From: a virus
Length of the DNA stretch: 64,000 nt
IMG/VR virus record: IMGVR_UViG_3300020198_000009
Span: 1-64,000 of that record
Strand: one strand, 5' to 3'
This document shows, one piece after another, positions 2,205 to 21,938 of the stretch. The stretch's first letter is position 1. The number at the start of each line of letters is the position of its first letter. A program made the translations under genes and the position numbers. The notes under the pieces are model-generated. The model saw only the letters and a list, made by a program, of their open reading frames with translations, was not told the origin of the DNA and searched no databases.

Positions 2205-2321
2205 TCAAGTGCGCTGCATTTCGCCCGGCGGCCTGACCGGCACGGGCCTGGCGCCGCAATGGGGGCAGGCCGTCGCCAGCACGTCGTAACGGCGCCGGCA
2301 ATTTGGACAAGGCTTCTTCAT
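2205..2321 (-). CDS. Small zinc-ribbon protein
   Basis: MKKPCPNC...CPHCG; coupled to the dam stop (ATGA). Confidence 0.55.
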   Translation of the reverse strand: MKKPCPNCRRRYDVLATACPHCGARPVPVRPPGEMQRT

Positions 2322-3205
2322 GTGTGGTAATTCCTGATCGCCAGCTCCCGGCGCACGCCGCGCTTGTCCTTGCTGGCGGCAATCGGCTGGCGCGCGGTTA
2401 CTTCGGTTAGATTCCAGATCGGCTCCTGGTAGAGTTCGCGCACCAGCGGCACATCGCTGTTGCTCAAGAAGATCCTGGCTCCCTGCCCGTGCCAATCCGT
2501 GAGCACCCTGGCGAGCGCGATGTGCTCGGCGTAGCCGAAGGCGTCCTGCTGGTAGCGGGTGAAGCTGGTCTCGTTGGCCGGCGCGTAGGGGGGATCGACC
2601 ACGATCAGGTAGTCCGGGAACTCCAGGGCGCCCATGACCGGATCGTCGTGACGCATCGTCCGCAACTCGACACCCTGGAGGGCCGCCGAGCAGGCGCGCA
2701 GGTTGTCGACATCGAACAGCCCGGCCCCGGGGTAGATAGCGCCATGCGAATTGCGACCGATCGGGACGTTGTGCCGCCCCCGGAAGTTGACCCGCCAGAG
2801 CCCGTTGTAACCAGCCCGGCACAGATACAGGAAGCGGGCGGCCCGCTCGATATCGGTCATCTCCCCGGGATCGAGGGCGCGGATTTCATAGTAGTACGGC
2901 TCCGAGTGCAGCCCTGCGATGCACTCCAGCTTGCCAAGCAACGCGCCGGGCCGATCGCGCAGCGCCCGGTAGGTACACATGAGATCGGTGTTGACATCCG
3001 AAATGATGGGGTGGCCGGTGATGCGCGGCCGCAGGCACCAGAAGACCGCAGCCCCTCCCGCCATGGGTTCCCAGTAATGTGTTATCTCCCGAGGAAGCAA
3101 CGGCTCGTACTGCCCCAGCAGTTGCCGCTTGCCGCCGGCCCACTTGACGAACGGGTGCGCCAGGGGGGCGACTTGCCCCACTTCCGGGGCGGGTTGGCAA
3201 GTCAT
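2318..3205 (-). CDS. dam: DNA adenine methyltransferase, Dam (D12) family
   Basis: PFVKWAGGKRQL, EPMAGGAAVF, SDVN, AARFLYL..GYNGLWRVN..G..NVP.G, DPPY, FTRY, LSNSD. Confidence 0.9.
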   Translation of the reverse strand: MTCQPAPEVGQVAPLAHPFVKWAGGKRQLLGQYEPLLPREITHYWEPMAGGAAVFWCLRPRITGHPIISDVNTDLMCTYRALRDRPGALLGKLECIAGLHSEPYYYEIRALDPGEMTDIERAARFLYLCRAGYNGLWRVNFRGRHNVPIGRNSHGAIYPGAGLFDVDNLRACSAALQGVELRTMRHDDPVMGALEFPDYLIVVDPPYAPANETSFTRYQQDAFGYAEHIALARVLTDWHGQGARIFLSNSDVPLVRELYQEPIWNLTEVTARQPIAASKDKRGVRRELAIRNYHT

Positions 3206-4044
3206 GGCTGGCCGATTCTCGCCGCGCGGCGTGCCAGGAAGTCGGCCGGCTCGGGGATCGACGGAGTCTGCATCCCGAAACCGCGCATCTGCTGATACAC
3301 GGCTTCGAGAGCCGCCTTGGCATGGCGCGGATCCCGGATCTGGTTGCGCGGGCGACCGCCGGCCGCCGCCTTGGCGATCTTGTTGATCTGATGGAACTCG
3401 ACCGTGCGCTTCTGCTTCCAGGTGACCAATCTCCCGGGATCGTTGGGGCGCGGTCCTACCAGACGATCGACCAGCTCGGAAACCGCGTGCGAAGTCCGGA
3501 AGTTGAGAGCCTGGGTGAGGGTCTCGCGCTCCTCCCAGGCAACCATGCCCTCGTTGACCTTGGTCTCGACGGTCTGTTCGAGGTTGTCGGTGACCGCCTC
3601 GGCCTTCTGCTCGACCAACGCCACCCGCTCCTCGATGGCCGACTGCCGGGCCTCGATAGCGGGCACGTACCGGCCGATCAGGATGGCCAGCTTGTCCACT
3701 TCGGTCATCGGCCGAACCGAATAGGAGCCGGTCTTCCGGATGCTCGGCATGACCTCGCCGGCCACCTTCTTCTGGTAAGACAGGGCGCCCGGCTTGTCGC
3801 TCCTACCCAGGAAGAAGTACAAGCCCTGCTCGGAAAGCGTCAACATCTCCTGGTCTCCCGAGGGGGTCTGAACGGAATAGACCCCCCGCCACTCCTCTGG
3901 TACATGGCCGATCGTGGCGACGCCCTTCCAGGCATAGCCCAGGGCCTCGGCGACGTCTTTGGCGACGAACCAGTACTCGTCATCGATCATGAGGATACGG
4001 TTCTCGCGACCCTCGAATTCGAACGGGACGATGGCATTGCTCAT
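3202..4044 (-). CDS. Bro-N domain protein (phage antirepressor-like)
   Basis: FEFEGRENRIL...WFVAKDVAEALGY...TPSGDQEM..LSEQGLY....RSDKP.A......EVMPSIRKTGSY. Start at 4044 after AGGAG. Confidence 0.88.
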   Translation of the reverse strand: MSNAIVPFEFEGRENRILMIDDEYWFVAKDVAEALGYAWKGVATIGHVPEEWRGVYSVQTPSGDQEMLTLSEQGLYFFLGRSDKPGALSYQKKVAGEVMPSIRKTGSYSVRPMTEVDKLAILIGRYVPAIEARQSAIEERVALVEQKAEAVTDNLEQTVETKVNEGMVAWEERETLTQALNFRTSHAVSELVDRLVGPRPNDPGRLVTWKQKRTVEFHQINKIAKAAAGGRPRNQIRDPRHAKAALEAVYQQMRGFGMQTPSIPEPADFLARRAARIGQP

Positions 4045-4390: not shown

Positions 4391-4559
4391 GGATGACTCC
4401 TCGTTATGTTCGCTTGGCTGATACTACCATTCTCGGCGAGACCTAAAGGTAATACCAATGAAAAACTTTACAATCCCGCCATGCCGGGCACCGCTTGTCG
4501 GTAGGACCAACCTGGTCCCAGACGAGAAGCGATGCCCTGCACGGCAGGACTCTTTGACG

Positions 4560-5048
4560 CTAAGCGAGCAGCAGCGACTCGAACCAGCGCAGCAGCCGGC
4601 GCTTGTCCGGTTGGGGCTGACAGAGCGGCTCGACCAGGACCGTGTAGGCCCCGATCAACTTGCCGCCCAGGATGTCGGCCGTGAGGCGGTCGCCGATGAC
4701 GGCCACCTCATTGGCCCCTAACGAGATCATCCCGAGCGCCTTGCGAAACCCCCACGGCCCTGGCTTGTAGGCCAGGTGGACGTAAGGGCACCCCAGGCGC
4801 TCGGCCAAGCGCCGGGCCCGCCCCTCATTCCTGGTGTTGCTGACGATCGCCAACCGCAAGGTGTTGCTGGCGATCGTCAACCAGGCCGCGATGCGCGGCG
4901 ATACAACGTCGTCGCGACCATTTCCCCCGGGGTCCGGCAGGATGGTGTCATCGATGTCGATGAGCACCCCCTTTACGCGAGTCGCCAGATCTCCGACGTC
5001 GATGTCGGCGACCGAGGCGGCCCGCATGTCGGGCCTGATTATTGACAT
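4560..5048 (-). CDS. YqeG-like HAD-IIIA phosphatase
   Basis: DIDDTI (motif I), IVSN (II), KP (III), VIGDRLTADILGG (IV). Confidence 0.88.
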   Translation of the reverse strand: MSIIRPDMRAASVADIDVGDLATRVKGVLIDIDDTILPDPGGNGRDDVVSPRIAAWLTIASNTLRLAIVSNTRNEGRARRLAERLGCPYVHLAYKPGPWGFRKALGMISLGANEVAVIGDRLTADILGGKLIGAYTVLVEPLCQPQPDKRRLLRWFESLLLA

Positions 5049-5057
5049 ACCCCTGCC

Positions 5058-5255
5058 TCACTTGATGGGGATCTGCGCCCCCAGGGCGGCCCCCAGGGCG
5101 AAGAGATCCCCCTTGAGGGGGACCTCCACGTAACCCTCCGAGCGCCCCACCCGGACCGGGACAGCCAGATCCCGGCCCGAGCTCGGATGGGTGCCGACCA
5201 AGGTCAGCGACCCATCCGCATGGATGCGCAGCGCATTGGCACCCTTAGAGGCCAT
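5058..5255 (-). CDS. Hypothetical protein
   Basis: RBS GGAGG; part of a tightly packed minus-strand operon. Confidence 0.55.
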   Translation of the reverse strand: MASKGANALRIHADGSLTLVGTHPSSGRDLAVPVRVGRSEGYVEVPLKGDLFALGAALGAQIPIK

Positions 5256-5520
5256 GGCGACCTCCCAGGAGCGCCACCAGGCGCTCGCGCATCCGCCCGA
5301 ACCCTACCGGATCCGGATCGTAGGGGCGGTAAGGGGGGTATGGTAAGCCGCCTGCCGGCCGGGCGCAGATCGCCACCTCCGCGCCAAAGGCCAGGCCCTC
5401 GCCATACACCCATGTCCGAGCCAGTTCCTTGCAAACCAGATCAGGGTCGGCCGCCTCGACGATCCCGGCGAGGATCGGCGTGGGCTGGGCGCTGGAGATG
5501 ATCTCATACTCTACGCGCAT
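5245..5520 (-). CDS. Hypothetical protein
   Basis: MRVEYEIISSAQ...; RBS AGGAGGAG. Confidence 0.55.
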   Translation of the reverse strand: MRVEYEIISSAQPTPILAGIVEAADPDLVCKELARTWVYGEGLAFGAEVAICARPAGGLPYPPYRPYDPDPVGFGRMRERLVALLGGRHGL

Positions 5521-6488
5521 GGGATCTCCTCCTGCCAGGCCAGGCCCCGGTCGAGGAACCGGGAATCCGGCCGCAGTCCCAGCAGCTGCATCACCTCGCA
5601 GTGAAGCAGCTTGATGCCGGGGTGCGCCGCCCGCAGCGCCGGGTGGCCGACCAGCAAGCGAACCCGGTACTCGATCAACCGGGCCGCCCGGGCATCCCCC
5701 GGCCCGGGATCCTCGACGTCCAGCAACAACCCAGCCAGGTCGTCGACGGCGTCGAGGACGGCCATGCCGGTTCCCTGCCGCTCCAGGGTGCCGAGGACCC
5801 GGCCCAGGGCCGAGAGGTCGACATGACCCGCGAGGGCCGAGTCGGCCGGGTTGCCATGGGCCTCGTCCCAGGTCCCGCCCTTGCGGACGTGGGCGTGGCT
5901 GACCGCCACCCCGAAGGCCGAGGCCGCCCTGGAGACCATGGAATGGCACTGCGGCGACCGCCAGGTCTCCGGGTGCTCCCCCAGCAGGGCCACCCGGTTG
6001 CGGAGCCATATGAGCATCTTGCGATGCTCATCCGACCCCCCGAGCAGGGCCGTAATCCGATCGGCGTTGGCCAGCACGACGGCCAGCCAGGCCGCAATCA
6101 GGCCGCCATCCCAGGCCTCGATGGCCGGCAGTCGCCGGTTGGCCGGCCGGTAGCTGCGGTCGCAATGCGCCCGAGCTGCCACCACCCGATCGGCGTTGAC
6201 GCCGACCAGGTATAACCAGGCGGCGACCTGGTCGATGTCCCAGGTCTCGACCTGGGAGTCGCCCAGAAAGGCCGACAGGTCGGCCATTCTGGGGTTGATG
6301 ATGACCCCCGGGGCGGTAATCTGTGCCTGGACAATCGGCACGCCGCCGATGATGGCGGCCTGCGACCGGCAGGCGCCGATCGGGAGCACCCGGCCGGCCC
6401 GGGCCGTGGTGTCCATGAGCGTCTGCCCGAGCCGGGCGAGACGCTCGACCTGGTCGGTCGTGGGCTTGGTCCTGACAACTGTGGCCAT
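5511..6488 (-). CDS. Hypothetical protein
   Basis: MATVVRTKPTTDQ...; RBS AAAGGAGG. Confidence 0.6.
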   Translation of the reverse strand: MATVVRTKPTTDQVERLARLGQTLMDTTARAGRVLPIGACRSQAAIIGGVPIVQAQITAPGVIINPRMADLSAFLGDSQVETWDIDQVAAWLYLVGVNADRVVAARAHCDRSYRPANRRLPAIEAWDGGLIAAWLAVVLANADRITALLGGSDEHRKMLIWLRNRVALLGEHPETWRSPQCHSMVSRAASAFGVAVSHAHVRKGGTWDEAHGNPADSALAGHVDLSALGRVLGTLERQGTGMAVLDAVDDLAGLLLDVEDPGPGDARAARLIEYRVRLLVGHPALRAAHPGIKLLHCEVMQLLGLRPDSRFLDRGLAWQEEIPCA

Positions 6489-6523
6489 GGGGGACTGCCT
6501 CCTTTCAAGAGACGCGACGGGGT

Positions 6524-6961
6524 CTACGGGAACTGGCACTGGCGTTCGAGATCCGCCAGTGTGGTCTTGAGCAGCGCGACCCCCTGCGTCAGCTCAAGCA
6601 CGAAGAATGCCGCCGTGAAGGTCAACCGGGGGCGATCGCCCACGATCTCGGCCAGGATCGCGGGCTCCTGGCGGTCCATGGCGACATGGATACCGCCAGA
6701 GCCCTGAATGATTCGCCACCAGAACAGCTCCCGCACCGAGAGTCGATGCACAACCCCCAGTAGCTGGATCTCGGGGGCGCGGACGCCGTCGGGAACGGCG
6801 TCCATTACCGAGGGTGGCCCCTTGTGGCCGGAATAACCACGGGGCTTGGTGGCAACCCGTGCCTTGGCGGCCGGTGCGGCCGCCCCCGGCTGCTGGCGGC
6901 CGAGCAGATGCACGCCGACGCCCGCCGCCAGGGCACCGACGACTACAATCAGGGGAAGCAT
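6524..6961 (-). CDS. Hypothetical protein with N-terminal membrane anchor
   Basis: MLPLIVVVGALAAGVGVHLL hydrophobic N-terminus; TGATG coupling to upstream gene. Confidence 0.6.
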   Translation of the reverse strand: MLPLIVVVGALAAGVGVHLLGRQQPGAAAPAAKARVATKPRGYSGHKGPPSVMDAVPDGVRAPEIQLLGVVHRLSVRELFWWRIIQGSGGIHVAMDRQEPAILAEIVGDRPRLTFTAAFFVLELTQGVALLKTTLADLERQCQFP

Positions 6962-7233
6962 CAGTCGATCCGGTTCAGCAATTGCCAGACCGACATACCG
7001 GTCCCGAGCCGGCCGCCTACCCCCCGAATGGGCGACAGGAATATCGCCGCGACCGAGAGCGCCACCCTGATGGCATTCTTCTGGTCGGGAGACAAACTCC
7101 TAAACGCCTTGGTGACGGTCATACCGGCCGCCACCAGATTTTCCAGGGCGTCGACTGCGCCCTTCACTACGGGTTCCCAGTCCGTTCGCCGCACGCGGCT
7201 GACGAATGAGACCAGGTTGCTCCTCATGCTCAT
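6961..7233 (-). CDS. Hypothetical protein (possible membrane association)
   Basis: MSMRSNLVSF...; RBS AGGAGG. Confidence 0.55.
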   Translation of the reverse strand: MSMRSNLVSFVSRVRRTDWEPVVKGAVDALENLVAAGMTVTKAFRSLSPDQKNAIRVALSVAAIFLSPIRGVGGRLGTGMSVWQLLNRID

Positions 7234-7269
7234 GGGCAATCCTCCTGTGGGGTGTCTTGATGGAGAGAC

Positions 7270-7800
7270 GTGGAAAACCGCCCGCTGATCGGGAGGGGCT
7301 GGCCCCGGGCACCTAAAATCGAACCAGCACATCCGCCACGGATAACCCGCGCCGGCACGAGGCACCAGACGAGACCCGAAGGTCGTCAGGTGCCCCGCAC
7401 CGGCGCGGGACCCGAGAAGGAGGTGCCGGTCCTTGTGATTGCTGGGAAGTTACCAGCCCGGACGCCCTTGGCTGCCGTGAACGGGATGGGTTGCCAATCC
7501 CATCCCGCAGCACGCCTCCGGCGTCCGGTGACTGTCATTGCGGCGGGGTTCAAGCGCTCCAGGCTGTGGGCCCACCTGGAGACGGGCGGTCGTCATCCGC
7601 TCTCGCTAACCCCTTCGGCGGGTCGGGGCCCGCTATGCAATTCTGGGCGAACCGTCGCCCAGGAGGGGCGCCCCGTTCTTGCCACGGGGCCACAGCGCGC
7701 CCGCCAGTCGGGAACCGGCTGGGTGCGCGTCGTGAGACGCCACGAATCTCTCGCCATAACCGCAGGTTTGGCGGGAGAGGTTCAACGGCCGCCGGGATCA
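7270..7800. ncRNA. Candidate large structured non-coding element (about 530 nt, more than 10 hairpins)
   Basis: No credible CDS. Stems include cccgcgccgg/ccggcgcggg, ccggacgcc/ggcgtccgg, cgggatggg/cccatcccg, ctgggcga/tcgcccag, gccccgt/acggggc, tctctcgcca/tggcgggaga. Confidence 0.5.
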
Positions 7801-7801
7801 C

Positions 7802-8107
7802 CTAGCTCCGGATGAGGCAGCGGCAGCCGATGACGGCGCCCGCCTCGTCCCGGACCAGCTCTCCGGGAGCCAGGAGATCACCCCGGCCGCCCGCCGCCGC
7901 GGCGACGAGGGCGGAAACGACGAAGAACGTGTCGGCCTGCGGCTCCGGCAGGTCGACCACGGCGCCGAATTCCCGGCGCTGGCAGGGGATGCCGCCGACC
8001 GACCCGGCGTCGGTCAGCTCGGCGGCGACCCGCGCCACCCGCCCGGAGGGCGGAATGGGCGGGAAGCCAACGACCTGGATCTGGTGAGGGGTTAAATTTA
8101 CGATCAC
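7802..8107 (-). CDS. Conserved phage hypothetical protein (NLTPH family)
   Basis: IVNLTPHQI...PPSG.VARV...LPEP......VVS.LVA.....R.DL..P..LVRD..G..IGC; GTG after GGAGGAGG. Confidence 0.75.
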   Translation of the reverse strand: MIVNLTPHQIQVVGFPPIPPSGRVARVAAELTDAGSVGGIPCQRREFGAVVDLPEPQADTFFVVSALVAAAAGGRGDLLAPGELVRDEAGAVIGCRCLIRS

Positions 8108-8402
8108 TGGGACACCTCCTCCCGCCTGATGCGGGGCAGATTGAGGGGATCCGCGGCCGGTATGTTTAACGTCCCCCGGCCGGGACGGGGCGCATACCCT
8201 CACGAGGTGGCGAGCCTCGCTACGCTTTGCGCTGAATGACCTCCGGCATCACCACGCCGGCCGCCGGGATCACGCCACGTACTGGAGCCTCTTGCGAGAC
8301 CTTTCCTGGCGTGCACCCCGGCGGAATAAGCGCTGGATATTCTCCCACCCTCCAGCGTGGCGGCCACCGCGCCCCCGGTGGCCAGGTGGGGGGGGTAGCT
8401 AG

Positions 8403-8705
8403 CTAGAGAATCGTACCCCCCTGGCAGAACCCGGAGCCGAAGCGCCGGGCTGCCTTGGCGTACCGCCCCTTGCGCCAGGGGCGGTGGGCGGCGGCCTGGC
8501 CCATCCTGACCCGGCCGACCAATTCGGCCAGGGTCAGGACGACCCCGGCCATCTCGACGGCGACCCCGGCCCCGCCCCGCAGGGCGGAGAACGCGGCCTT
8601 CGCCATGTCCTGGGCCTTGGCCCAAGACATGCCGGCTTCGGCGGGGTCGGCGGCTTCGGCGGCTTCGGCGGCGGCGGGGTCGGCGTTGGTGTTGGGATCC
8701 TGCAT
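8403..8705 (-). CDS. Hypothetical Ala-rich protein
   Basis: MQDPNTNADPAAAEAAEAADPAEAG...; RBS GGAGG. Confidence 0.55.
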   Translation of the reverse strand: MQDPNTNADPAAAEAAEAADPAEAGMSWAKAQDMAKAAFSALRGGAGVAVEMAGVVLTLAELVGRVRMGQAAAHRPWRKGRYAKAARRFGSGFCQGGTIL

Positions 8706-8909
8706 GTAGCACCTCCGTGGGCCGCCCCCTGTAAGGGCGGCAGACTTGACCGGGCCCCCAGCGCGTCCCATCCACGGCCCCCGAGGGGACCATGGCTAGA
8801 GGACCGACCCTTACGGCTCAGGCTGCAACCATTCCTGGTCTGTGCCGAGCCTCGGGGGCCGTTTGCCCTGGGGCGGGGAAACTTGCGAGAACCCAAAGGG
8901 GTTCTCAAA

Positions 8910-8925
8910 GATATTTAACAGAAAA
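8910..8925 (-). promoter_or_regulatory. Candidate early promoter motif TTTTCnGnTAAATATC (copy 2)
   Basis: 14/16 identical to 12226-12241; AT-rich, intergenic, oriented into the minus-strand genes. Confidence 0.4.
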
Positions 8926-8936
8926 CGCCGCTACCT

Positions 8937-9233
8937 TTACGGGTCGCAGCGGACCATTTCGGCGGCCACCTGGTCCCGGGCGAGAGCGTCCGACGCCGCC
9001 CACTCGGGAACCCGGTTCTCCCGGACGGCCTCCTTGCAGAGGGTCTTCCGGGTCACGAAGAGCACCGCCATCTCCTCGCGGGCACAGGAATACTCGTCGT
9101 AGGCAGCCTGGGCCAGCGCCCAGGCGCCTGACGACCTGGCATCGGACTCGGCGGTTTCGTAAGCCAGGCGCGCCAGCCTGACCCACCACCAGGTCCGGTG
9201 AAATAGCGTCAAGAACTCCAGGTAGTCCTTCAC
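8937..9233 (-). CDS. Hypothetical protein
   Basis: GTG start overlapping the upstream stop (GTGA); VKDYLEFLTLFHRTWWW... Confidence 0.55.
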   Translation of the reverse strand: MKDYLEFLTLFHRTWWWVRLARLAYETAESDARSSGAWALAQAAYDEYSCAREEMAVLFVTRKTLCKEAVRENRVPEWAASDALARDQVAAEMVRCDP

Positions 9234-9640
9234 GCGCCGCGGCCCCCCCGCGGGGCCTGGTAGTGCCGCCGGCGCTCGGCCAGCTGCGCGCGGATGAGCG
9301 CGCGCAGCCGATCCGCGTGATACCCGAGCCGGTCGGCCCACCAGGCCAACGAGCCCGGGGCCGCCCCTGTGGCGCCGAGCCAGGCCCACGTCTCTCCCCG
9401 GTCGCTCCGGAGGTCGGCGATGGCCTGCCGGACGACCGCCCAGGCGATCGTCCGCTCGGCGCCGGCGGCCAGATCGAGGGGCCGGCCGACCGTGGCCCTG
9501 GCCCGGTCGAGGACCTCCATGGCCTCGACCAGGTGGGCCTGGGCGTAGTCCCGGCCCTCGGGGGTGCGGCAACGCCGCGCGGCCCGTCGCCAGAAGGCGA
9601 CCAGGCGCTCGGCGTTGCCGAGGTAGAGCAGGTCCTGCAT
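9230..9640 (-). CDS. Hypothetical protein
   Basis: RBS AAAGGAGG directly after the tRNA-like RNAs. Confidence 0.6.
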   Translation of the reverse strand: MQDLLYLGNAERLVAFWRRAARRCRTPEGRDYAQAHLVEAMEVLDRARATVGRPLDLAAGAERTIAWAVVRQAIADLRSDRGETWAWLGATGAAPGSLAWWADRLGYHADRLRALIRAQLAERRRHYQAPRGGRGA

Positions 9641-9662
9641 GTGGACCTCCTTTCGACCTTAG

Positions 9663-9740
9663 TGGAACCACCGGGACTCGAACCCGGCTCCCTCCTGTGC
9701 GCTTTGGCTTTCGGGAGGGAGGGCACCTGCGACTGGTCCC
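9663..9740 (-). ncRNA. tRNA-like RNA with alanine acceptor identity, no D-stem and no canonical anticodon loop
   Basis: GGGACCA/TGGTTCC acceptor stem (G3:U70), discriminator A73, T-arm CCGGG-TTCGAGT-CCCGG, 8-bp stem CTCCCTCC/GGAGGGAG closing an 18-nt loop. CCA not encoded. Confidence 0.7.
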
Positions 9741-9741
9741 A

Positions 9742-9806
9742 TGGTGGAGCCGGCGGGTACTGACCCCGCGTGCCAGGCTTGCGCCCGGTCGACCCTTTAC
9801 GGCCCC
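9742..9806 (-). ncRNA. Minimal tmRNA-like RNA (tRNA-like domain only, 65 nt)
   Basis: GGGGCCG TAAAGGGTCGA CCGGGC GCAA GCCTGG CAC GCGGG GTCAGTA CCCGC CGGCTCC ACCA. G3:U70, A73, encoded CCA, ssrA-type stemless D-loop ending TCGAC, P2 capped by a GNRA loop. GATAAT box 5 nt upstream. Confidence 0.78.
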
Positions 9807-9844
9807 ATGAAATTATCGCCAGGGTGGCGCCTGGACTTCCAGTG

Positions 9845-10322
9845 ATGGGGACGGGCTGCTCATACTGCCCGTCGCTCCCGGATCCCGGCTTGGTGTTTTG
9901 GGCCGCAAACCACAATCGGCCTCTTGCACCGGGAGCAAAACTTGGCGAGTGCCCGTCAGCGCTGCACGCAGTACCCCTGGAAACGGGGCAGATCCCGAAG
10001 GACCAGGACGGGTTTCTCGCCAGTATGGAGTATACCAGCCGACCCGGGGTTGGGTCAAGCTGGGGTTGCCCCTCGGCCTCCGGCCCCGGGCCGGGGGTCA
10101 TCGGACGCGACCGAAATCCCGGCGCCTCCCGTCCTCTGCGCCTGCCGGTCTATGGCTGCGCCGACGAGGACGGGAGTCGCCGAAAAGCCCTCGCGCGCTG
10201 TGTCGATGTTGTCGTTACGCGAGATGCGAGGGCCCGGGGGAGATCCCACCCGAGCGCCTGCTGCATGCTGCGCCGAGTGGGTGGGATCTCCTCGTAGCTG
10301 GCATCAGATCTCGATGCCAGCC
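9845..10322. ncRNA. Candidate large structured non-coding element (about 480 nt)
   Basis: Stems gacgggc/gcccgtc, gctcccgg/ccgggagc, tggcgag/ctcgcca, ctcccgtcctc/gaggacgggag, gccctcgc/gcgagggc, ggagatcccaccc/gggtgggatctcc, gctggcatc/gatgccagc. Confidence 0.5.
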
Positions 10323-10422
10323 TCCTCATGACTACCCCTTCCTGTCCCTCGCGGGACGGTCGCGGCGCAGTGGCGGCGGCTCGATGCCAGGCCTTGCGCC
10401 AGGTGGTGGTGGTGGGGGGGGG

Positions 10423-10782
10423 CTACTCGGCGCGGTAGGTGGGGTCCCCCGGCCTCTGGTTGCAGAGGCCCGGGGGCACCCCGGCCGCCTGCGCCACGGC
10501 CGACGCGGCCAGGGCGGCGTCCAGCGCCACCTGCGGGCCGACCGTGTCCCGCGCCACGCGGGCGGCCGCCCGCGCGGACAAACCCTTCGTGGCGGCCTCC
10601 CACGCCTGCCACGACGCCTCCTCGGCGTCGTTAGCGGCGGCGAAGGCCGCCCGTGCCGCCTCGACGAGCACTACTTGCGTCGCGCTCAGGACGATGCGCC
10701 CGTCGGGCGCTATGGTCCGGGGCCGTGGGTCGTCGAGGTGGCGGCCGGACCCGCCGCCGATGTGCTCCCAGATCCCGCTCAT
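10423..10782 (-). CDS. Hypothetical Ala-rich protein
   Basis: RBS AAAGGAGG before ATG. Confidence 0.55.
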   Translation of the reverse strand: MSGIWEHIGGGSGRHLDDPRPRTIAPDGRIVLSATQVVLVEAARAAFAAANDAEEASWQAWEAATKGLSARAAARVARDTVGPQVALDAALAASAVAQAAGVPPGLCNQRPGDPTYRAE

Positions 10783-11099
10783 GCCCCCTCCTTTCTTCGC
10801 CCGTACTGGGCGTCCTTGTCCTCGGAACGGCCGGGAGCCGGGGAGTATTTCGCCACCCCCATGGCGCCCGCCCGAGATGGCGGGAAAAATCTTCGGCCGG
10901 AGCGGGCTTTGCCAGCAGCATGCCAGCGCCAGCCACCCGTACTACCCAGCCCTTCCGGACCGGGGTTCCTCGTGTTGGCAGCCCCTAGAACCACGCCGGC
11001 CCGCTGGATAGAAACCAGCAAGCCAGCGCCATGCCAAGCGCCCCAAGAATGTACCTGACGACCGGCGGCTGGCGCCCGAGCCACCGGTCGAGGAGGGCC

Positions 11100-11291
11100 T
11101 CAAGCCGACGCATGAAACCCTCCCACCAGTTGCCGCAGCGACATGGTGGCCAGCGGGCCGACCAGCCGCTGCGGCGGCGGGGTCGTCGGGGGCGGTGTGG
11201 TGGTCCTGGCCTCGACGACGGCCACCCGGCGCTCCAGGGCGCCGAGGGCCGCCAGGACGACCAGGGCGGCGGAGAGGTCTCCTGCGCTCAC
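11100..11291 (-). CDS. Small hypothetical protein
   Basis: GTGA overlap with upstream gene; hydrophobic N-terminus. Confidence 0.45.
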   Translation of the reverse strand: MSAGDLSAALVVLAALGALERRVAVVEARTTTPPPTTPPPQRLVGPLATMSLRQLVGGFHASA

Positions 11292-11614
11292 GAGCCCAGG
11301 AGGTCCACCGCCTGGTCGTCGAGCTGGCCGGCGGCATAGTGCCGCCCCTGCTCCCTGAGGCGGTCCGCCATCGCCCGGAGCTCTCGGCTCCGGGCGATCT
11401 TGTCGCTGACCGGGGTCGTGTCGCTCGGCGGCGCGGCCATATCGGCCTCGGCCGCGAGGCGGTCGCGCTCGGCCCTATCGGCCTCGGCCTGCTCGGCCGC
11501 CTCGACCGAGGCCGCAGCCGCGCCGACGATGGCCAGGCCGGTGAGCACGGCCAAGCCGATGACGCCCAGGACGTTACCGGCGATCTCGCCGGCCTTCTTC
11601 GAATCAAAACCCAT
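11288..11614 (-). CDS. Hypothetical membrane-anchored protein
   Basis: MGFDSKKAGEIAGNVLGVIGLAVLTGLAIVGA; RBS AGGAGG. Confidence 0.6.
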   Translation of the reverse strand: MGFDSKKAGEIAGNVLGVIGLAVLTGLAIVGAAAASVEAAEQAEADRAERDRLAAEADMAAPPSDTTPVSDKIARSRELRAMADRLREQGRHYAAGQLDDQAVDLLGS

Positions 11615-11851
11615 TTTACACCTCCTGGAAAGGGAGGCCGGATGCCCAAAGGGCCGGCACCTGTCGATCGGCGCGGCCACCAAGATGGTGTAGCCGTCCG
11701 ACCTACCGGGTGCCGTTGCTCGGCCCATCTTGACGAAATGGCGGCAGCGGGGCATTGAACCCCGCTCGGGACCTTCAGACGACCGCGACACCCCGGAGGG
11801 GCTCGTTTGATCGCCTCTATGCCAGGCTGACACCCGGCATGTCCTTCAGCC

Positions 11852-11960
11852 CTCGCAGCCTGTCAGAGCCGCTTCCGCTTGCCGCTTGCTAAATAAATGA
11901 ATAACCCCTCCTAAGTAAAATTACTCGCAGCCTGTCAGAGCCGCTTCCGCTTGCCGCTTG
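11852..11960. repeat. Perfect 37-bp direct repeat x2 flanking a 35-bp AT-rich spacer (possible mini-CRISPR-like unit)
   Basis: CTCGCAGCCTGTCAGAGCCGCTTCCGCTTGCCGCTTG at 11852-11888 and 11924-11960; spacer CTAAATAAATGAATAACCCCTCCTAAGTAAAATTA. Confidence 0.9.
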
Positions 11961-12225
11961 GGATCCCCATGGCAGACGAGCATGGCCCGCCTGCCATGGG
12001 GATGCCGGGGAAGCTTCCCCGGCAAAAGGCGACCTGCCCGTGGACGACACGGCCTACGCCGTACCGGGGCCGATACGAGGTTCGCCACGCCCCGACCCCT
12101 TCACATCGCTACCCACGGGCACTTTTCTCGAAGCGCCGCGAAACACCGCCTTTCCGCCCGGCGGCAGGGGCATCGCTTAATTCATGGCGATCCTCCCTTC
12201 AACGAGCCCAAAAGCGCGTTTCAGG

Positions 12226-12241
12226 GATATTTAGCCGAAAA
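12226..12241 (-). promoter_or_regulatory. Candidate early promoter motif TTTTCnGnTAAATATC (copy 1)
   Basis: Sits at the head of the whole leftward accessory region; near-identical copy at 8910-8925. Confidence 0.4.
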
Positions 12242-12301
12242 ACACGGCTTTTTTAGGTGCGCGTTAGCACCACAATGGCGCGATTTTTGGCGCGATTCGG
12301 G

Positions 12302-13765
12302 CTATTGGGATAGGGCCGTGAGCAGGATGCCCTCGTTGATGTACCGCGAGATTCGCGCCGTGAAACTGATCTCGGGCCGGGCGGGCACCGTCAGGAACGT
12401 GTCTGACTCCCGCTCGATCAGCGACCCGTCAGGCAGGAAGACCTGGGCGCCGATCATGAAGTCCTGGTGGACCAATCGTACTCCGGCCGCATGGATGGCC
12501 TCGGTGATCTTCGAGACGACGATGCCGTCCTGGCCCGAGACCGAGTTGACGTAGGCGTCCATCAGCCGACCGGCCTCGACGATCTGCCCGTCGGCGCCGT
12601 CCACGAAGATGTTGCCGTACAGCCAGACCGGCACGAAGTGGCGCACCAGGACGTTGGCCATCGACAACCGGTTGTCGGCGCCGTTGACCCAGTCGTTGAT
12701 GAGCACGACGTCCGGAGCGTAGGAGATGTCGAGCACCAGCACCCGATCGGCCAGGCCGGGGTCGACCGCCAAGGCCACTGGATCTACTGCCGAAAAACGG
12801 TAGCGCGGATCGCAGTTGACCAATTCGGTGTAGGGCGTGACGCCGTCCTGGCCCTTGACGGTCGCGCCGTGGATCTTGAGCAGCGCCCGGTACGGAGAGA
12901 GATCGACCGTCAGCGCGCCGGCGGGCACCGGGATTTCGACGGCCCGGCGCGTGATGGGGGTCCGGACATAGATGTCCGAATGGTTGCCCAGGTGGATGAG
13001 CATCTCGCCCAGCTCGGCATCGACGATGCGCTTGAGATCCCGGCGCATCTCGGGATCGGACATACCCACCGTGAGCAGGTCCTGGATGGTCTGACCGAAG
13101 ACCTCGCGCAGCAGGAAGTCCACCGACGGCGCATTGACGAGGTTGCGGGTGTAGCGGGCCTTGCGCGTGCGCTCGAAGAGCTCCTGGTTCCCCTCGCGAT
13201 CGAGACCACCCTGGATCGCCGAAACCACCAGGGCCTCGATGAAGTTGGCGTCCGAGGCGAGATCGGCAATCTCGGCCACCGCCCCCACGGCCACATCGAA
13301 GGCGGCGCCGACGTCTTCGGCCTCGATCGGGATGTCGACGAAGTAGTGGCCCAGGGTGCCGTCGCGGGAGAAGTCGAATTCCTCAAGGGCCACGGCCACC
13401 TGGGGGTGGTAGACGTTCTCGCCGATGCCGATGACGGCCTGCGCGTCGAGCGAGACGTCGCCGGGGGCCACGTACTTCAAGCGCAGGGTCCCGCGGCTCT
13501 TGGCGCCCTCGCTGCGAACGGCGAAGTTCTGGTAGGCCAGGGCGTCCGCCTGTTCGTCGCTGAAGTCGAGCCAGTTCGAGGCGTTGCGCGCCACCTCGGC
13601 ATCGTTGAGTTTCTCGACGATGCTGGCCACCATCGGCACATGGGGGGCGACAAGGGCGCTGTACTGCGGCGTGCCCTCACGCAAATCGAGGGAGGGATCG
13701 GCCTCGGTCATCGCCGCGATGATGAGATCCTTGGCCTGGCTGTAGATGATATCGCCAGCTGACAT
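12302..13765 (-). CDS. Baseplate J-like wedge protein
   Basis: DLREGT...LV.P; R.EG.K.RG.L; IPIEAEDVG..FDV..G; IQGGLDRE.N.EL..R. Confidence 0.8.
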   Translation of the reverse strand: MSAGDIIYSQAKDLIIAAMTEADPSLDLREGTPQYSALVAPHVPMVASIVEKLNDAEVARNASNWLDFSDEQADALAYQNFAVRSEGAKSRGTLRLKYVAPGDVSLDAQAVIGIGENVYHPQVAVALEEFDFSRDGTLGHYFVDIPIEAEDVGAAFDVAVGAVAEIADLASDANFIEALVVSAIQGGLDREGNQELFERTRKARYTRNLVNAPSVDFLLREVFGQTIQDLLTVGMSDPEMRRDLKRIVDAELGEMLIHLGNHSDIYVRTPITRRAVEIPVPAGALTVDLSPYRALLKIHGATVKGQDGVTPYTELVNCDPRYRFSAVDPVALAVDPGLADRVLVLDISYAPDVVLINDWVNGADNRLSMANVLVRHFVPVWLYGNIFVDGADGQIVEAGRLMDAYVNSVSGQDGIVVSKITEAIHAAGVRLVHQDFMIGAQVFLPDGSLIERESDTFLTVPARPEISFTARISRYINEGILLTALSQ

Positions 13766-14600: not shown

Positions 14601-17039
14601 ATGGCGAGCAGGAAGCCAGGCACAAAAAATGAGAAGTTGGCCCGCGCCGACTTCGGTACCGTGCTGGCCGTCGATCCCGTACGGCAAACGGCCACTGTCG
14701 AGAGCGACCAGGGGAAACCCTACCCGGATTGTGGAATCGGCCTGGGGGGCCCGGCCAACTTCTCGACACCAGAGCCGGGCTGGCTCGCAGAAGTATCCGA
14801 ACATTTCGGCCTGGCGCAGATAGAGCGCTATCTTACCGGTTCAGGATCTCCGGAGTATCCGGAGCGGGATCCGGCAGGCCAGATAGACAGTTTCGTGACC
14901 ATGACGGGTGGCATCGACCTGTACCGACAGATTGCAGGCAAGCGCCTGAATTTCCGCGACAACAGACCCGTCGATCTGATCGCTGGCGATCAGGGATTCC
15001 GCTCGTCCGACGGCGCCATGGTGTTCGCCGGCCGGGGCCCCATCGCCGGCATGAAGGTCTCCGACCTCTGCCAGCTGCTGCTCAACGCGGTCGACGACCA
15101 TGCACGTCTGATCGGGCGCAATCTGGAAATAATGACCGACTGGGGGCAATTGCGGTTCGAGAACGCCAAGGGCCAGACGCGCCTGATCCTGCGCGGCGCC
15201 GGACAGGCCGACAAGACCTACGACGAAAGGCTTGACTTCGAGCTCAAGCTGGGCGGGCCAGATACGGCGGACGATCCCTTCCTGCAACTGGCGCTCTACG
15301 ACCGGAAAGGCAGGGCCGAGGGCGCCGGGGATGGCGACATCGCACTGGCGGTTCGTGCCGATCAACGCGGCCAGATCAGCCTGTTCTCTGCCGGCGATCG
15401 CTGGGACACGGTCCACGGCCAATCCGTCGCGACCGTGACACGGAGCGAAAAGCGCATCATCGGCGACTCGGCAAGTCATGAGATCGACGGAGATCTCGAA
15501 ACGATCGTCGGCAACGAGCACCAGCTGAGGGCCAGAAACTCGATCGAGACCCTCGCGGGCCACGCGTCGCCATCCGGAAAGATGCAGGGGAAAGTCATCA
15601 ACGCCCCGGCGGTCGCCCTGGGTAGTGAGGAGGGGCAAGCGGCCCCCATGGGAGAGACGCTCAAGGGCTTTCTGGAGTCGCTGGTCGACTGTATCCAGAG
15701 CCAGATCCTGGTGATCCAGGGCAAGCCGGGAACGCTGCTGCCCGTGCCGGGCGTGCCGGGAGATCTCCTGAGCGACGTCGTAACCTACCCGCAAAAACCA
15801 CGACCGGCCGGCGAACTCCGCGACGTGGTCCCGAGCCCCGCCACCCGCGTCGCCGCGCCAGCGGCGCCCATCAAGTGGCGGTCACTGGAGCCCACGGTGG
15901 TAATACCATCAAACGTCTTTCGGATGCTGATCAGTGCCTGGGCGATTCAATCAAACCTGGGATATGGCCAACTGTTTCCGGCCGAGCACCTCAAACCCGT
16001 CACCGCCCTGCGACGAGACATCTCGAAGAATTTCGGCGGCACCTTCGATCCCGAGGCAACCGAACTCCTGCGACAGATAGCCACCCAGATCAACGACAAG
16101 CTTCGAACTCTCGGTTGGTCATTCCGGATGGCGCGCGACATCCATGTCTTCACGATCAAAAAGATGCCGGCCGGCTTCGAGGCCTTCGCCAATCCGGGAG
16201 AGCGCTGGATCATGGCGACCCCGCAAGGGGCGTTCCGCACCGATGGTCGGGCCACATCCTGGCCAATGTTGCAAAATCAACTCAAGAACAAGCCGCAAGA
16301 TGTCATTCCGCTCCTGAATACCCTCGTGCACGAATTGGTCCACTGCTCGATGTCGATTGTGTTGACCAACTGGCTGTACCACGAAAGCACTTGGGCGGAT
16401 CTCGGCATCATCCCCGGGGTGCTCCCGTTGCCCTCCGGCCATGCGGGGACCCTGTGGGGCCGCGTGTTCCGGGAAAACCAGATGGAATCCCTAACGGACT
16501 ACCTATCCTTCATCCTCACCGGCCTCCTGGTCGGCGACGACGAGACGGCGTACGCGACTCGCAAGACGAGGCGCGGAGGCTACACGCTGTGGCCGAACGC
16601 CTTTTTCGCGCGCAACTGGGGGTATCTGGTCAACGAAATCCTAGCCAGCCACGCCGGCAACTCGACATCGGTCGGCCACAAGTTGCTGGGCATGTTGTCG
16701 AAATGGGGCATCCGGGATACCGATCTAGGTGCCGCACGGGCCTCTCATACCGTCAGGCCCGGCACGCGCATCATCCTGGTCGAGGAACTCCCGGCCACCA
16801 CTCTGGTAGAAGATCCCGGAGGCCGGGGCCTGGTTGCAGCCGGCGGCACCATGTACCTCGACCAGAACGGCGACCCGGGCCGCGGACCCGACAAGCTTGG
16901 CGCCGGTACTGATAGTTACGACCTGCCTTACGGCCTGGTCGATCTGCCCCAGGAAATGATCGAGACAATCGCAGACACGGATGTCGAGACCTTCGCGGTA
17001 CTGGCGGCCTTCGCCAAGCCCGGGGAGGGAATCGCCTGA
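14601..17039 (+). CDS. gp5/VgrG-like baseplate spike with C-terminal HEXXH (zincin-like) extension
   Basis: N-terminal OB-like GTVLAVDP..TATV; beta-helix-type repeats (TVHGQS..IIGDS..EIDGDL..IVGNE); V.LGSE...APMGE.L..FL; then LVHELVH at about 16329-16343. Confidence 0.6.
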   Translation: MASRKPGTKNEKLARADFGTVLAVDPVRQTATVESDQGKPYPDCGIGLGGPANFSTPEPGWLAEVSEHFGLAQIERYLTGSGSPEYPERDPAGQIDSFVTMTGGIDLYRQIAGKRLNFRDNRPVDLIAGDQGFRSSDGAMVFAGRGPIAGMKVSDLCQLLLNAVDDHARLIGRNLEIMTDWGQLRFENAKGQTRLILRGAGQADKTYDERLDFELKLGGPDTADDPFLQLALYDRKGRAEGAGDGDIALAVRADQRGQISLFSAGDRWDTVHGQSVATVTRSEKRIIGDSASHEIDGDLETIVGNEHQLRARNSIETLAGHASPSGKMQGKVINAPAVALGSEEGQAAPMGETLKGFLESLVDCIQSQILVIQGKPGTLLPVPGVPGDLLSDVVTYPQKPRPAGELRDVVPSPATRVAAPAAPIKWRSLEPTVVIPSNVFRMLISAWAIQSNLGYGQLFPAEHLKPVTALRRDISKNFGGTFDPEATELLRQIATQINDKLRTLGWSFRMARDIHVFTIKKMPAGFEAFANPGERWIMATPQGAFRTDGRATSWPMLQNQLKNKPQDVIPLLNTLVHELVHCSMSIVLTNWLYHESTWADLGIIPGVLPLPSGHAGTLWGRVFRENQMESLTDYLSFILTGLLVGDDETAYATRKTRRGGYTLWPNAFFARNWGYLVNEILASHAGNSTSVGHKLLGMLSKWGIRDTDLGAARASHTVRPGTRIILVEELPATTLVEDPGGRGLVAAGGTMYLDQNGDPGRGPDKLGAGTDSYDLPYGLVDLPQEMIETIADTDVETFAVLAAFAKPGEGIA

Positions 17040-21931: not shown

Positions 21932-21938
21932 CTATAAT
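21932..21938 (+). promoter_or_regulatory. Putative late promoter CTATAAT
   Basis: One of 8 CTATAAT(T/C) boxes pointing into structural genes. Confidence 0.6.

Follow-up and report, generated by a model that had tools for sequence, protein, structure and literature searches.

Phage genomes are normally gene-packed. In phage T7, the junctions of the early genes carry RNase III hairpins (R0.3-R1.3), one conserved hairpin of ~25 bp per junction in a short spacer. The early promoters of phage N4 are conserved short hairpins, with a stem of 5-7 bp, a 3-nucleotide (nt) loop and shared flanks, and serve a virion-packaged, single-subunit, T7-like RNA polymerase. The locus described here, in the IMG/VR virus record IMGVR_UViG_3300020198_000009, holds ~2.8 kb of non-coding DNA within 5 kb, which in a phage genome needs explanation, and both its spacers and its small genes are rich in hairpins. 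The reading favored below, with a probability of roughly 0.45, is that the spacers are structured untranslated parts of sense transcripts, involved in 3'-end formation, processing and stability, together with two small RNA genes.

The sequence comes from an uncultured jumbo phage of high GC content (~65%) in lake water. The record is 80,429 bp long and estimated to be 39% complete, so that the genome should be roughly 200 kb; the window analyzed is its first 64 kb (64,000 nt), and coordinates refer to this window unless a related locus is named. Near-identical sequence is present only in lake-water metagenome runs, with no RNA runs listed. An intein-bearing terminase and a fused beta/beta' RNA polymerase of the multisubunit type are encoded in the window, in a record that is ~39% complete. 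The accessory block of interest, at ~4.4-12.3 kb, lies just downstream of the baseplate genes; its DNA has no similarity match in a phage collection or a plasmid collection.

Like the T7 early region, the block combines small same-strand genes with long imperfect sense-strand helices at gene junctions, and by analogy the processed helices would sit at mRNA 3' ends. A gene for RNase III or SmpB turned up neither in this record nor in three related ones, so that a host RNase III would act. Unlike the T7 junctions, the block has spacers of 200-780 nt with several unrelated helices, and helices within open reading frames (ORFs) too; cleavage here is only predicted. The likeness to N4 is limited to the general idea of intergenic hairpins in a small-gene region: the block has neither a conserved motif nor a class of short stems with 3-nt loops, its main helices are RNA structures that differ between the strands, and the polymerase encoded in this part of the genome is multisubunit.

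The giant Pseudomonas phages 201phi2-1 and phiKZ have 132 terminators, including long-stem variants, and 11 small RNAs, mostly derived from 5' untranslated regions and one beside a tRNA (PMC11512511). These are the same kinds of elements as are proposed below for the block, but those genomes are densely coding, have no sequence relationship to this one, and have no described 55% non-coding block with a hairpin excess in its ORFs. A further precedent is the transfer-messenger RNA (tmRNA) of mycobacteriophage DS6A, a form with “little more than the TLD”, or tRNA-like domain; strong inhibition of tmRNA is described for a similar TLD-only molecule, which may titrate SmpB (PMC4131195). Forms of tmRNA lacking a coding sequence, of ~65 bp, are also described, including plastid ones (PMC11915505).

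Gene map and non-coding spacers

Genes were called from codon usage and from GC content at third codon positions (GC3), with a caller trained on the long ORFs of the window, and from a GC frame plot; the two agree. Eight minus-strand genes, each preceded by a GGAGG-type ribosome-binding site, lie at 6961-7233, 7802-8107, 8403-8705, 8937-9233, 9230-9640, 10423-10782, 11100-11291 and 11288-11614. The spacers that separate or follow them measure 568, 295, 231, 782, 317 and 687 nt, the 317 nt including a doubtful 42-amino-acid ORF, without which this spacer is 202 nt. The coding fraction is 0.43-0.46 in 7234-12301, compared with 0.963 in the remaining window, where only two gaps exceed 200 nt. A sequence-only reading of the window had described gaps devoid of credible ORFs in an otherwise almost gapless stretch, and on both points the gene map agrees with it.

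Several observations bear on the non-coding status of the spacers. Their ten longest ORFs translate as Arg/Pro/Gly-rich strings, show no GC3 periodicity in the GC frame plot and match no Pfam or PHROG family, and no pseudogene remnant was detected. Nor would reassigned stop codons save these ORFs, as GC3 periodicity is independent of the genetic code in use. Hidden or decayed genes are, given the absence of Pfam or PHROG matches, unsupported as an explanation. The spacers are not an assembly artefact, since contigs from four other lake DNA runs span them with zero differences.

Further minus-strand ORFs called in the block are at 4560-5048, 5058-5255, 5245-5520, 5511-6488 and 6524-6961. The ORFs of the block are small and mostly orphan: only the gene at 7802-8107 has relatives, its full-length product belonging to a widespread family of phage proteins of ~105 amino acids (5673 matches), and the gene at 9230-9640 has no relative among 5.8 billion proteins. 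Block genes have weaker codon scores and higher GC than core genes. Runs of G and of C are enriched in the block; palindromic restriction-type motifs, CCWGG included, are not.

Size, extent and polarity of the hairpin excess

Folding free energies of 120-nt segments were compared with those of dinucleotide shuffles across the whole window, a check that had been proposed with the sequence-only reading. Mean z-scores are -1.4 to -2.4 for blocks at ~4.4-12.9 kb and about -0.3 elsewhere (block versus rest of the window, Mann-Whitney p 2e-15 for the minus strand and 4e-11 for the plus strand), and single elements reach -7.3 and -7.6. An energy-free count of perfect stems of at least 7 bp, with loops of 3-30 nt, points the same way: 19 were observed in the spacers versus 8.3 expected from shuffles, 51 versus 19.4 in the ORFs of the block, and 44 versus 43 in five control stretches. 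The enrichment of hairpins in the block is thus real, at about 2.3- to 2.6-fold over the shuffled expectation.

It is not confined to the gaps. The block's ORFs are equally enriched, and its coding segments have z-scores of -2.15 (plus strand) and -2.68 (minus strand), compared with -1.39 and -2.10 for gap segments. The structured block also extends back to ~4.4 kb, beyond the region originally noted (7270-12300), and excess structure is lacking from 10783-10984, from 9641-10000 outside the tRNA-like pair described below, and from parts of 11680-11900 and 12040-12300. The proposal of dense hairpin arrays in nearly every gap therefore holds as regards an excess over shuffled sequence, and fails as regards confinement to the gaps, the starting point and the inclusion of all gaps. 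The individual stems that had been picked out by eye are there: 8774-8786/8850-8862 and 10239-10251/10279-10291 are perfect over 13 bp, and 12003-12024 is a palindrome.

Strand polarity, which had been thought unclear, is clear for the largest helices. Inside the block, z-scores are lower on the minus (gene) strand, with a mean difference of -0.52 (Wilcoxon p 0.006); outside it, the strands do not differ. The element at 7292-7436 folds with -95.9 kcal/mol (z -7.3) as the minus strand and -74.6 kcal/mol (z -4.4) as the plus strand, that at 4400-4549 with -74.0 (z -7.0) versus -55.8 kcal/mol (z -4.2); for 11955-12030 the z-scores are -7.6 and -5.1, and for 8765-8870 they are -4.1 and -1.8, again with the minus strand favored. 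Folding as the plus strand costs the largest helices 7-21 kcal/mol. The helices in 10110-10325 are equally stable on both strands, with z-scores of -4.5 to -5.4. Wobble pairs agree with the energies: in the five most asymmetric elements there are 29 G:U pairs in the sense strand and 12 in the antisense strand, with 7 versus 3 in the 7292-7436 element and 10 versus 3 in the 4400-4549 element. Sense-strand RNA structure can thereby be taken as shown in the case of the largest helices; for the others it is no more than suggested.

Four helices of the sense strand have the length expected of RNase III processing sites, ~20 bp or more: 4474-4549 (~33 pairs), 7296-7432 (~45-52 pairs), 10117-10185 (~23 pairs) and 11960-12006 (~19 pairs). 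The two longest, 4474-4549 and 7296-7432, adjoin ORF ends and are followed by short U-tracts, as read from the sequence.

A tRNA-like pair in the largest spacer

The 145-nt “tmRNA” that ARAGORN calls in the 782-nt spacer consists of two adjacent elements. The tag that ARAGORN assigns to this call runs through the second of them and is an artefact.

Element 1 (9742-9806, minus strand) is a 65-nt tmRNA TLD without an mRNA-like domain, recognized from Rfam comparison and from its minimum-energy fold, which consists of the acceptor stem, the P2 hairpin and the T-arm. The acceptor stem is 7 bp long (GGGGCCG/CGGCUCC), includes G3:U70 and leads to an encoded ACCA end; the D-loop analogue, UAAAGGGUCGAC, is of tmRNA type, the P2 helix is closed by GCAA, and the T-loop, GUCAGUA, resembles the alphaproteobacterial tmRNA type. 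Against the RF00023 model the element scores 29.5 bits, below the cut-off of 47, with an E value of 4e-9 over the 5.5 kb scanned, and its T-arm and acceptor also align with the Alpha_tmRNA and permuted-tmRNA models. Its 65 nt contain neither a tag reading frame nor pseudoknots. Element 1 accordingly has what characterizes a tmRNA TLD (an acceptor with G3:U70, a T-arm and a 3' CCA) and is not a full tmRNA.

Like the DS6A molecule, it is phage-encoded, ~65 nt long and little beyond a TLD, with G3:U70 acceptor, D-loop analogue, T-arm and CCA and neither tag frame nor pseudoknots; unlike it, it belongs to another phage lineage, probably with another host, and is directly followed by a second tRNA-like element. 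By analogy with the inhibitory TLD-only molecule, element 1 probably soaks up host SmpB.

Element 2 (9660-9741, minus strand) has a tRNA-like four-way fold and scores 29.6 bits with the Rfam mascRNA-menRNA model (cut-off 42.5). It bears alanine identity marks, with a 7-bp acceptor stem containing G3:U70 and followed by A73; its T-arm is canonical (CCGGG-UUCGAGU-CCCGG), and it has an 8-bp arm with an 18-nt loop. Its 3' end lies 20 nt before the AUG of the gene at 9230-9640. A canonical tRNA was considered and rejected for element 2: ARAGORN makes no tRNA call, and RF00005 has no match at E values up to 10 in the whole record.

Pattern searches recovered no relative of element 1: GTDB genomes contain no match to its T-arm/acceptor pattern, and a strict pattern retrieves no other TLD-only tmRNA from IMG/VR. 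Nor does the spacer hold a residual tmRNA body: beyond generic TLD features, the only match to the full-length tmRNA of a related phage (below) is of 11 nt. Nothing reaches Rfam gathering thresholds in the window or in three related loci, and sub-threshold matches to mraW, miRNA and riboswitch models are chance shapes.

Related phages

Aligned baseplate-protein homologues led to four related IMG/VR loci, at 36-44% identity; searches of IMG/VR with single proteins had returned no related loci. The closest relative, P0002 (an ENA contig of 79,290 bp), has 52% identity. The relatives are syntenic with this phage across the baseplate and tail genes, beyond which synteny is lost.

At the same position in locus L007, the 4 kb after the baseplate module have gaps of 617, 229, 192, 173 and 276 nt, a 4-fold excess of stems and a helix of ~40 pairs near 14826-14930; the sense-strand z-score is -2.5, compared with -0.07 in the tail genes of the same locus (p 8e-7). 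The L007 block is unrelated in sequence to the one described here, and equally gappy and hairpin-rich. Loci L006 (from record G001) and L009 have weaker versions.

Record G001 is complete, at 203,733 bp with terminal repeats, and 92.7% coding. Its equivalent block lies mid-genome, not beside a terminal repeat, so that the label “early region” draws no support from position. G001 also has a full-length tmRNA (L010:1501-1949, equal to G001:C1:124944-125392, plus strand) that scores 72 bits, above the Rfam cut-off, and tmRNA genes therefore belong to the repertoire of the lineage. This tmRNA was missed by ARAGORN; it is preceded by a sigma-70-like TTGCCA-17-TAGGAT and has what appears to be an unusually long tag frame, ending ...PALV. 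In L006, a cassette of ~70 nt is repeated before two genes (L006:11540-11609 and L006:12300-12367), with the pattern AUAUAACCUyACGGGAAACA...GCGGGUCCACCCGCrAGGAGGUUCA; a -10-like box, two hairpins and the ribosome-binding site lie within it.

Features of individual spacers

All spacers are described in the minus-strand sense. The 568-nt spacer (7234-7801), which lacks GC3 periodicity and whose ORFs match no family, holds at approximately 7296-7432 the compound hairpin of ~45-52 pairs, with a cUUCGg cap and followed by GAUUUUAG, and a second hairpin at ~7459-7528. A likeness to an mraW hairpin in this spacer scores 33 bits against a cut-off of 50 and was dismissed as a sub-threshold chance shape. 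An exact 16-nt repeat, CGGCCGCCGGGATCAC, occurs in this spacer and its neighbor (7786-7801 and 8258-8273) with unrelated flanks, and may be a recombination scar or a binding site.

The 295-nt spacer (8108-8402) has four perfect stems of 7-8 bp versus 1.0 expected, a number reached by 2 of 100 shuffles, and a C-run immediately after the upstream stop codon. A C-run also follows the stop codon at 10422, and at both places (8385-8402 and 10405-10422) the start of the spacer continues with ACC...CCUGGC; a common 3' signal is one possibility and a C-rich tract of Rho-loading type another. In the 231-nt spacer (8706-8936), GTTTTCTGTTAAATATC stands 20 nt past the stop of the gene at 8937-9233 and is followed by a hairpin at 8887-8906 and by the 13-bp pair 8774-8786/8850-8862. 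The part of the 782-nt spacer upstream of the tRNA-like pair (9807-10422) has long helices at 10117-10185, 10239-10291 and 10297-10321. The next spacer (10783-11099) is without excess structure: 10783-10984 has 0 stems versus 0.7 expected and a z-score near 0, and the doubtful, membrane-like ORF of 42 amino acids at 10985-11113 has a GC3 of 0.85 in frame and a codon score under the threshold of the caller.

The 687-nt spacer (11615-12301) has twin hairpins at 11960-12006 (~19 bp) and 12003-12024, and a hairpin that occludes the Shine-Dalgarno sequence precedes the AUG at 11614. A possible acceptor/T-arm minihelix at 11741-11786 has a weak Rfam score (18.9 bits, E 3.5). A perfect direct repeat of 37 nt (11852-11888 and 11924-11960) surrounds an AT-rich segment of 35 nt, a geometry like that of a repeat-spacer-repeat unit or of a 72-bp tandem unit present in 1.5 copies. 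Identity as a CRISPR mini-array or solitary repeat was considered and rejected: GTDB species genomes and JGI metagenome contigs contain no copy of a 23-nt core of the repeat, in a search by exact matching that could miss diverged repeats. At 12177-12199, a start-stop mini-ORF, AUG AAU UAA, comes after a strong Shine-Dalgarno sequence, AAGGGAGGA.

In the same block, outside the region originally noted, the spacer at 4391-4559 has a 33-pair hairpin (~4474-4549) that begins 11 nt past the stop of the ORF at 4560-5048; after it come UUGUAAAGUUUUU and an operator-like TGGTATTACC site with one mismatch. An integron attC array was also rejected, as 4391-12301 contains 0 RYYYAAC...GTTRRRY pairs on either strand.

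Promoter- and terminator-like signals are sparse. The lone sigma-70-like match in the block, TTGACC-18-TATACT at 10058-10029, is not significant alone (1 versus 0.6 expected); a -10-like GATAAT, read from the sequence, stands at 9812-9817, just before element 1. The one good intrinsic terminator reads on the plus strand (12233-12249), and the U-runs after the long helices at 4474-4549 and 7296-7432 are only short. Two minus-strand copies of the motif GTTTTyCkGyTAAATATC, at 8917 and 12233, each stand shortly past a stop codon. On the same strand are the near-identical 17-18-mers GTTTTCTGTTAAATATC (8909-8925) and GTTTTTCGGCTAAATATC (12222-12239), the second overlapping the plus-strand terminator; TAAATATC has no further occurrence in the 80-kb record.

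Eight perfect TATAAT boxes with conserved flanks (cTATAATyc) are at 21933, 33236, 34803, 40462, 42533, 43893, 48309 and 49630, and several adjoin copies of a TGGT-N3-ACCA palindrome, of which there are 8 versus 0.4 expected. All of these boxes and palindromes are outside the block and outside 0-20 kb of the window; they look like a promoter-plus-operator class. Just beyond the block are genes for a DNA methyltransferase (2318-3181) and an Ant/Bro-type anti-repressor (3202-4044), neighbors consistent with an accessory-gene region.

Discussion

The favored reading, in which two small RNA genes are embedded in spacers that otherwise form structured untranslated portions of sense transcripts, is preferred because of the strand asymmetry, the position of the longest helices beside ORF ends, the precedent of a TLD-only tmRNA and the recurrence of the architecture in L007. 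Under it, the very long stem-loops after ORFs would form or protect 3' ends, or would act as processing sites for a double-strand-specific enzyme, and leaders would fold over ribosome-binding sites. The largest spacer would hold two small-RNA genes, one for the 65-nt tmRNA TLD and one for the alanine-tRNA-like element, and the 3' end of the latter would also set the 5' end of the next mRNA. We infer that the block is transcribed, that its RNA is processed, that SmpB is titrated and that the phage benefits.

A number of results count against this. Spacers of 200-780 nt with multiple helices far exceed the length that terminators or RNase III sites need, several parts of the spacers are unstructured, and intrinsic terminators number 2 in 6900-12500 versus 2.6 expected. 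Hairpins as dense in ORFs as in spacers fit a neutral, region-wide mutational process as well. The strand asymmetry comes from a subset of elements: pooled over all fifteen, G:U pairs number 78 versus 64, which is not significant, and wobbles in perfect-seed stems, at 5 versus 6, are uninformative. Among the relatives, one L007 element favors the antisense strand, the effect in L006 is weak, and the blocks of the four related loci have no DNA or protein similarity to this one and no homologous spacers.

Another possibility is a neutral by-product. The block would then be an accessory region of rapid turnover and weak selection, with spacers that are remnants of lost genes and joints between cassettes and with the tRNA-like pair alone functional. 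Its hairpins would arise, for example, by template switching that perfects quasi-palindromes in DNA rich in G- and C-runs. The equal hairpin excess in ORFs and spacers and the lack of strand bias among perfect stems are what such a process would give; the enrichment of G- and C-runs, the orphan genes with weaker codon scores and higher GC than core genes, the absence of anything in the block conserved between related phages, and the 37-nt duplication and exact 16-nt repeat, which suggest recent rearrangement, point in the same direction. Yet random decay of DNA palindromes does not predict the sense-RNA asymmetry of the largest helices, pseudogene remnants are not detectable, L007 has the same architecture at the same position, and a phage seldom retains as much as 2.8 kb of DNA without use (the coding fraction of the complete relative G001 is 92.7%). 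We regard this explanation as rather unlikely. A selected counterpart to it would be an island of RNA structure whose position is kept in this high-GC jumbo lineage while its sequence turns over freely, and whose transcripts, from ORFs and spacers alike, would be maintained in a heavily double-stranded state; possible purposes are resistance to host RNases or RNA-targeting defenses, or service as a bulk decoy, in an island that would also house decoys of host translation such as the TLD-only tmRNA. We consider this distinctly improbable.

The sequence-only reading had itself proposed a cluster of novel structured RNAs, decoys or sponges, among small takeover genes; they are taken here as independent genes with promoters and ends of their own. 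For one spacer this stands, since two tRNA/tmRNA-like elements (9742-9806 and 9660-9741) are clearly present there, and the minihelix at 11741-11786 is a possible, weak third; the very stable elements at 7292-7436 (z -7.3) and 11955-12030 (z -7.6) could be further candidates, the -10-like boxes and the twice-occurring GTTTTyCkGyTAAATATC could be promoters, and the plus-strand terminator at 12233-12249 implies a separate transcript. Across the other gaps the proposal does not carry: no Rfam family reaches threshold, the single sigma-70-like promoter compares with 0.6 expected, nothing is conserved in relatives, and IMG/VR yields no similar TLD-only element to a strict pattern. Hairpins alone are no mark of RNA genes when ORFs are equally dense in them, and this equality is better fitted by structured mRNAs or a region-wide process than by discrete RNA genes; a cluster of independent RNA genes is accordingly an unlikely account of the block. 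The other proposal made from sequence, single-strand DNA hairpin promoters of N4 type for a virion RNA polymerase, belongs with cruciform or iteron elements of a replication origin as a class of DNA-level signals. The stems in 10110-10325 and at 12003-12024 are perfect palindromes, equally stable on both strands, the direct repeat at 11852-11960 surrounds an AT-rich segment, and the TATAAT-type promoters of the remaining genome are absent from the block, all of which would suit such signals. Against them, the stems and spacers share no sequence motif or repeat family, stem lengths range from 7 to ~45 bp, the only two perfect-stem hairpins with 3-nt loops (6866-6884 and 11330-11346) are both inside ORFs, the largest elements require the G:U pairs of one RNA strand, here the minus strand, the polymerase encoded in the window, from a genome represented to ~39%, is of multisubunit beta/beta' type, not the single-subunit N4 type, and the equivalent block of G001 is mid-genome, away from the terminal repeats. 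The N4-type proposal is in this way weakly refuted, and DNA-level signals in general are a very remote prospect.

The implications depend on whether the structure is selected. If it is a neutral by-product, the block would be an example of weakly constrained, high-GC DNA gaining hairpins, and a caution for structure-based prediction of RNA genes. If it is selected, the block would offer, in a lineage without a cultured member, a small natural collection of elements for RNA stability, processing and decoy functions. It would also provide the second phage case of a TLD-only tmRNA, here paired with an alanine-tRNA-like element, and this pair would give a handle on how phages may interfere with ribosome rescue.

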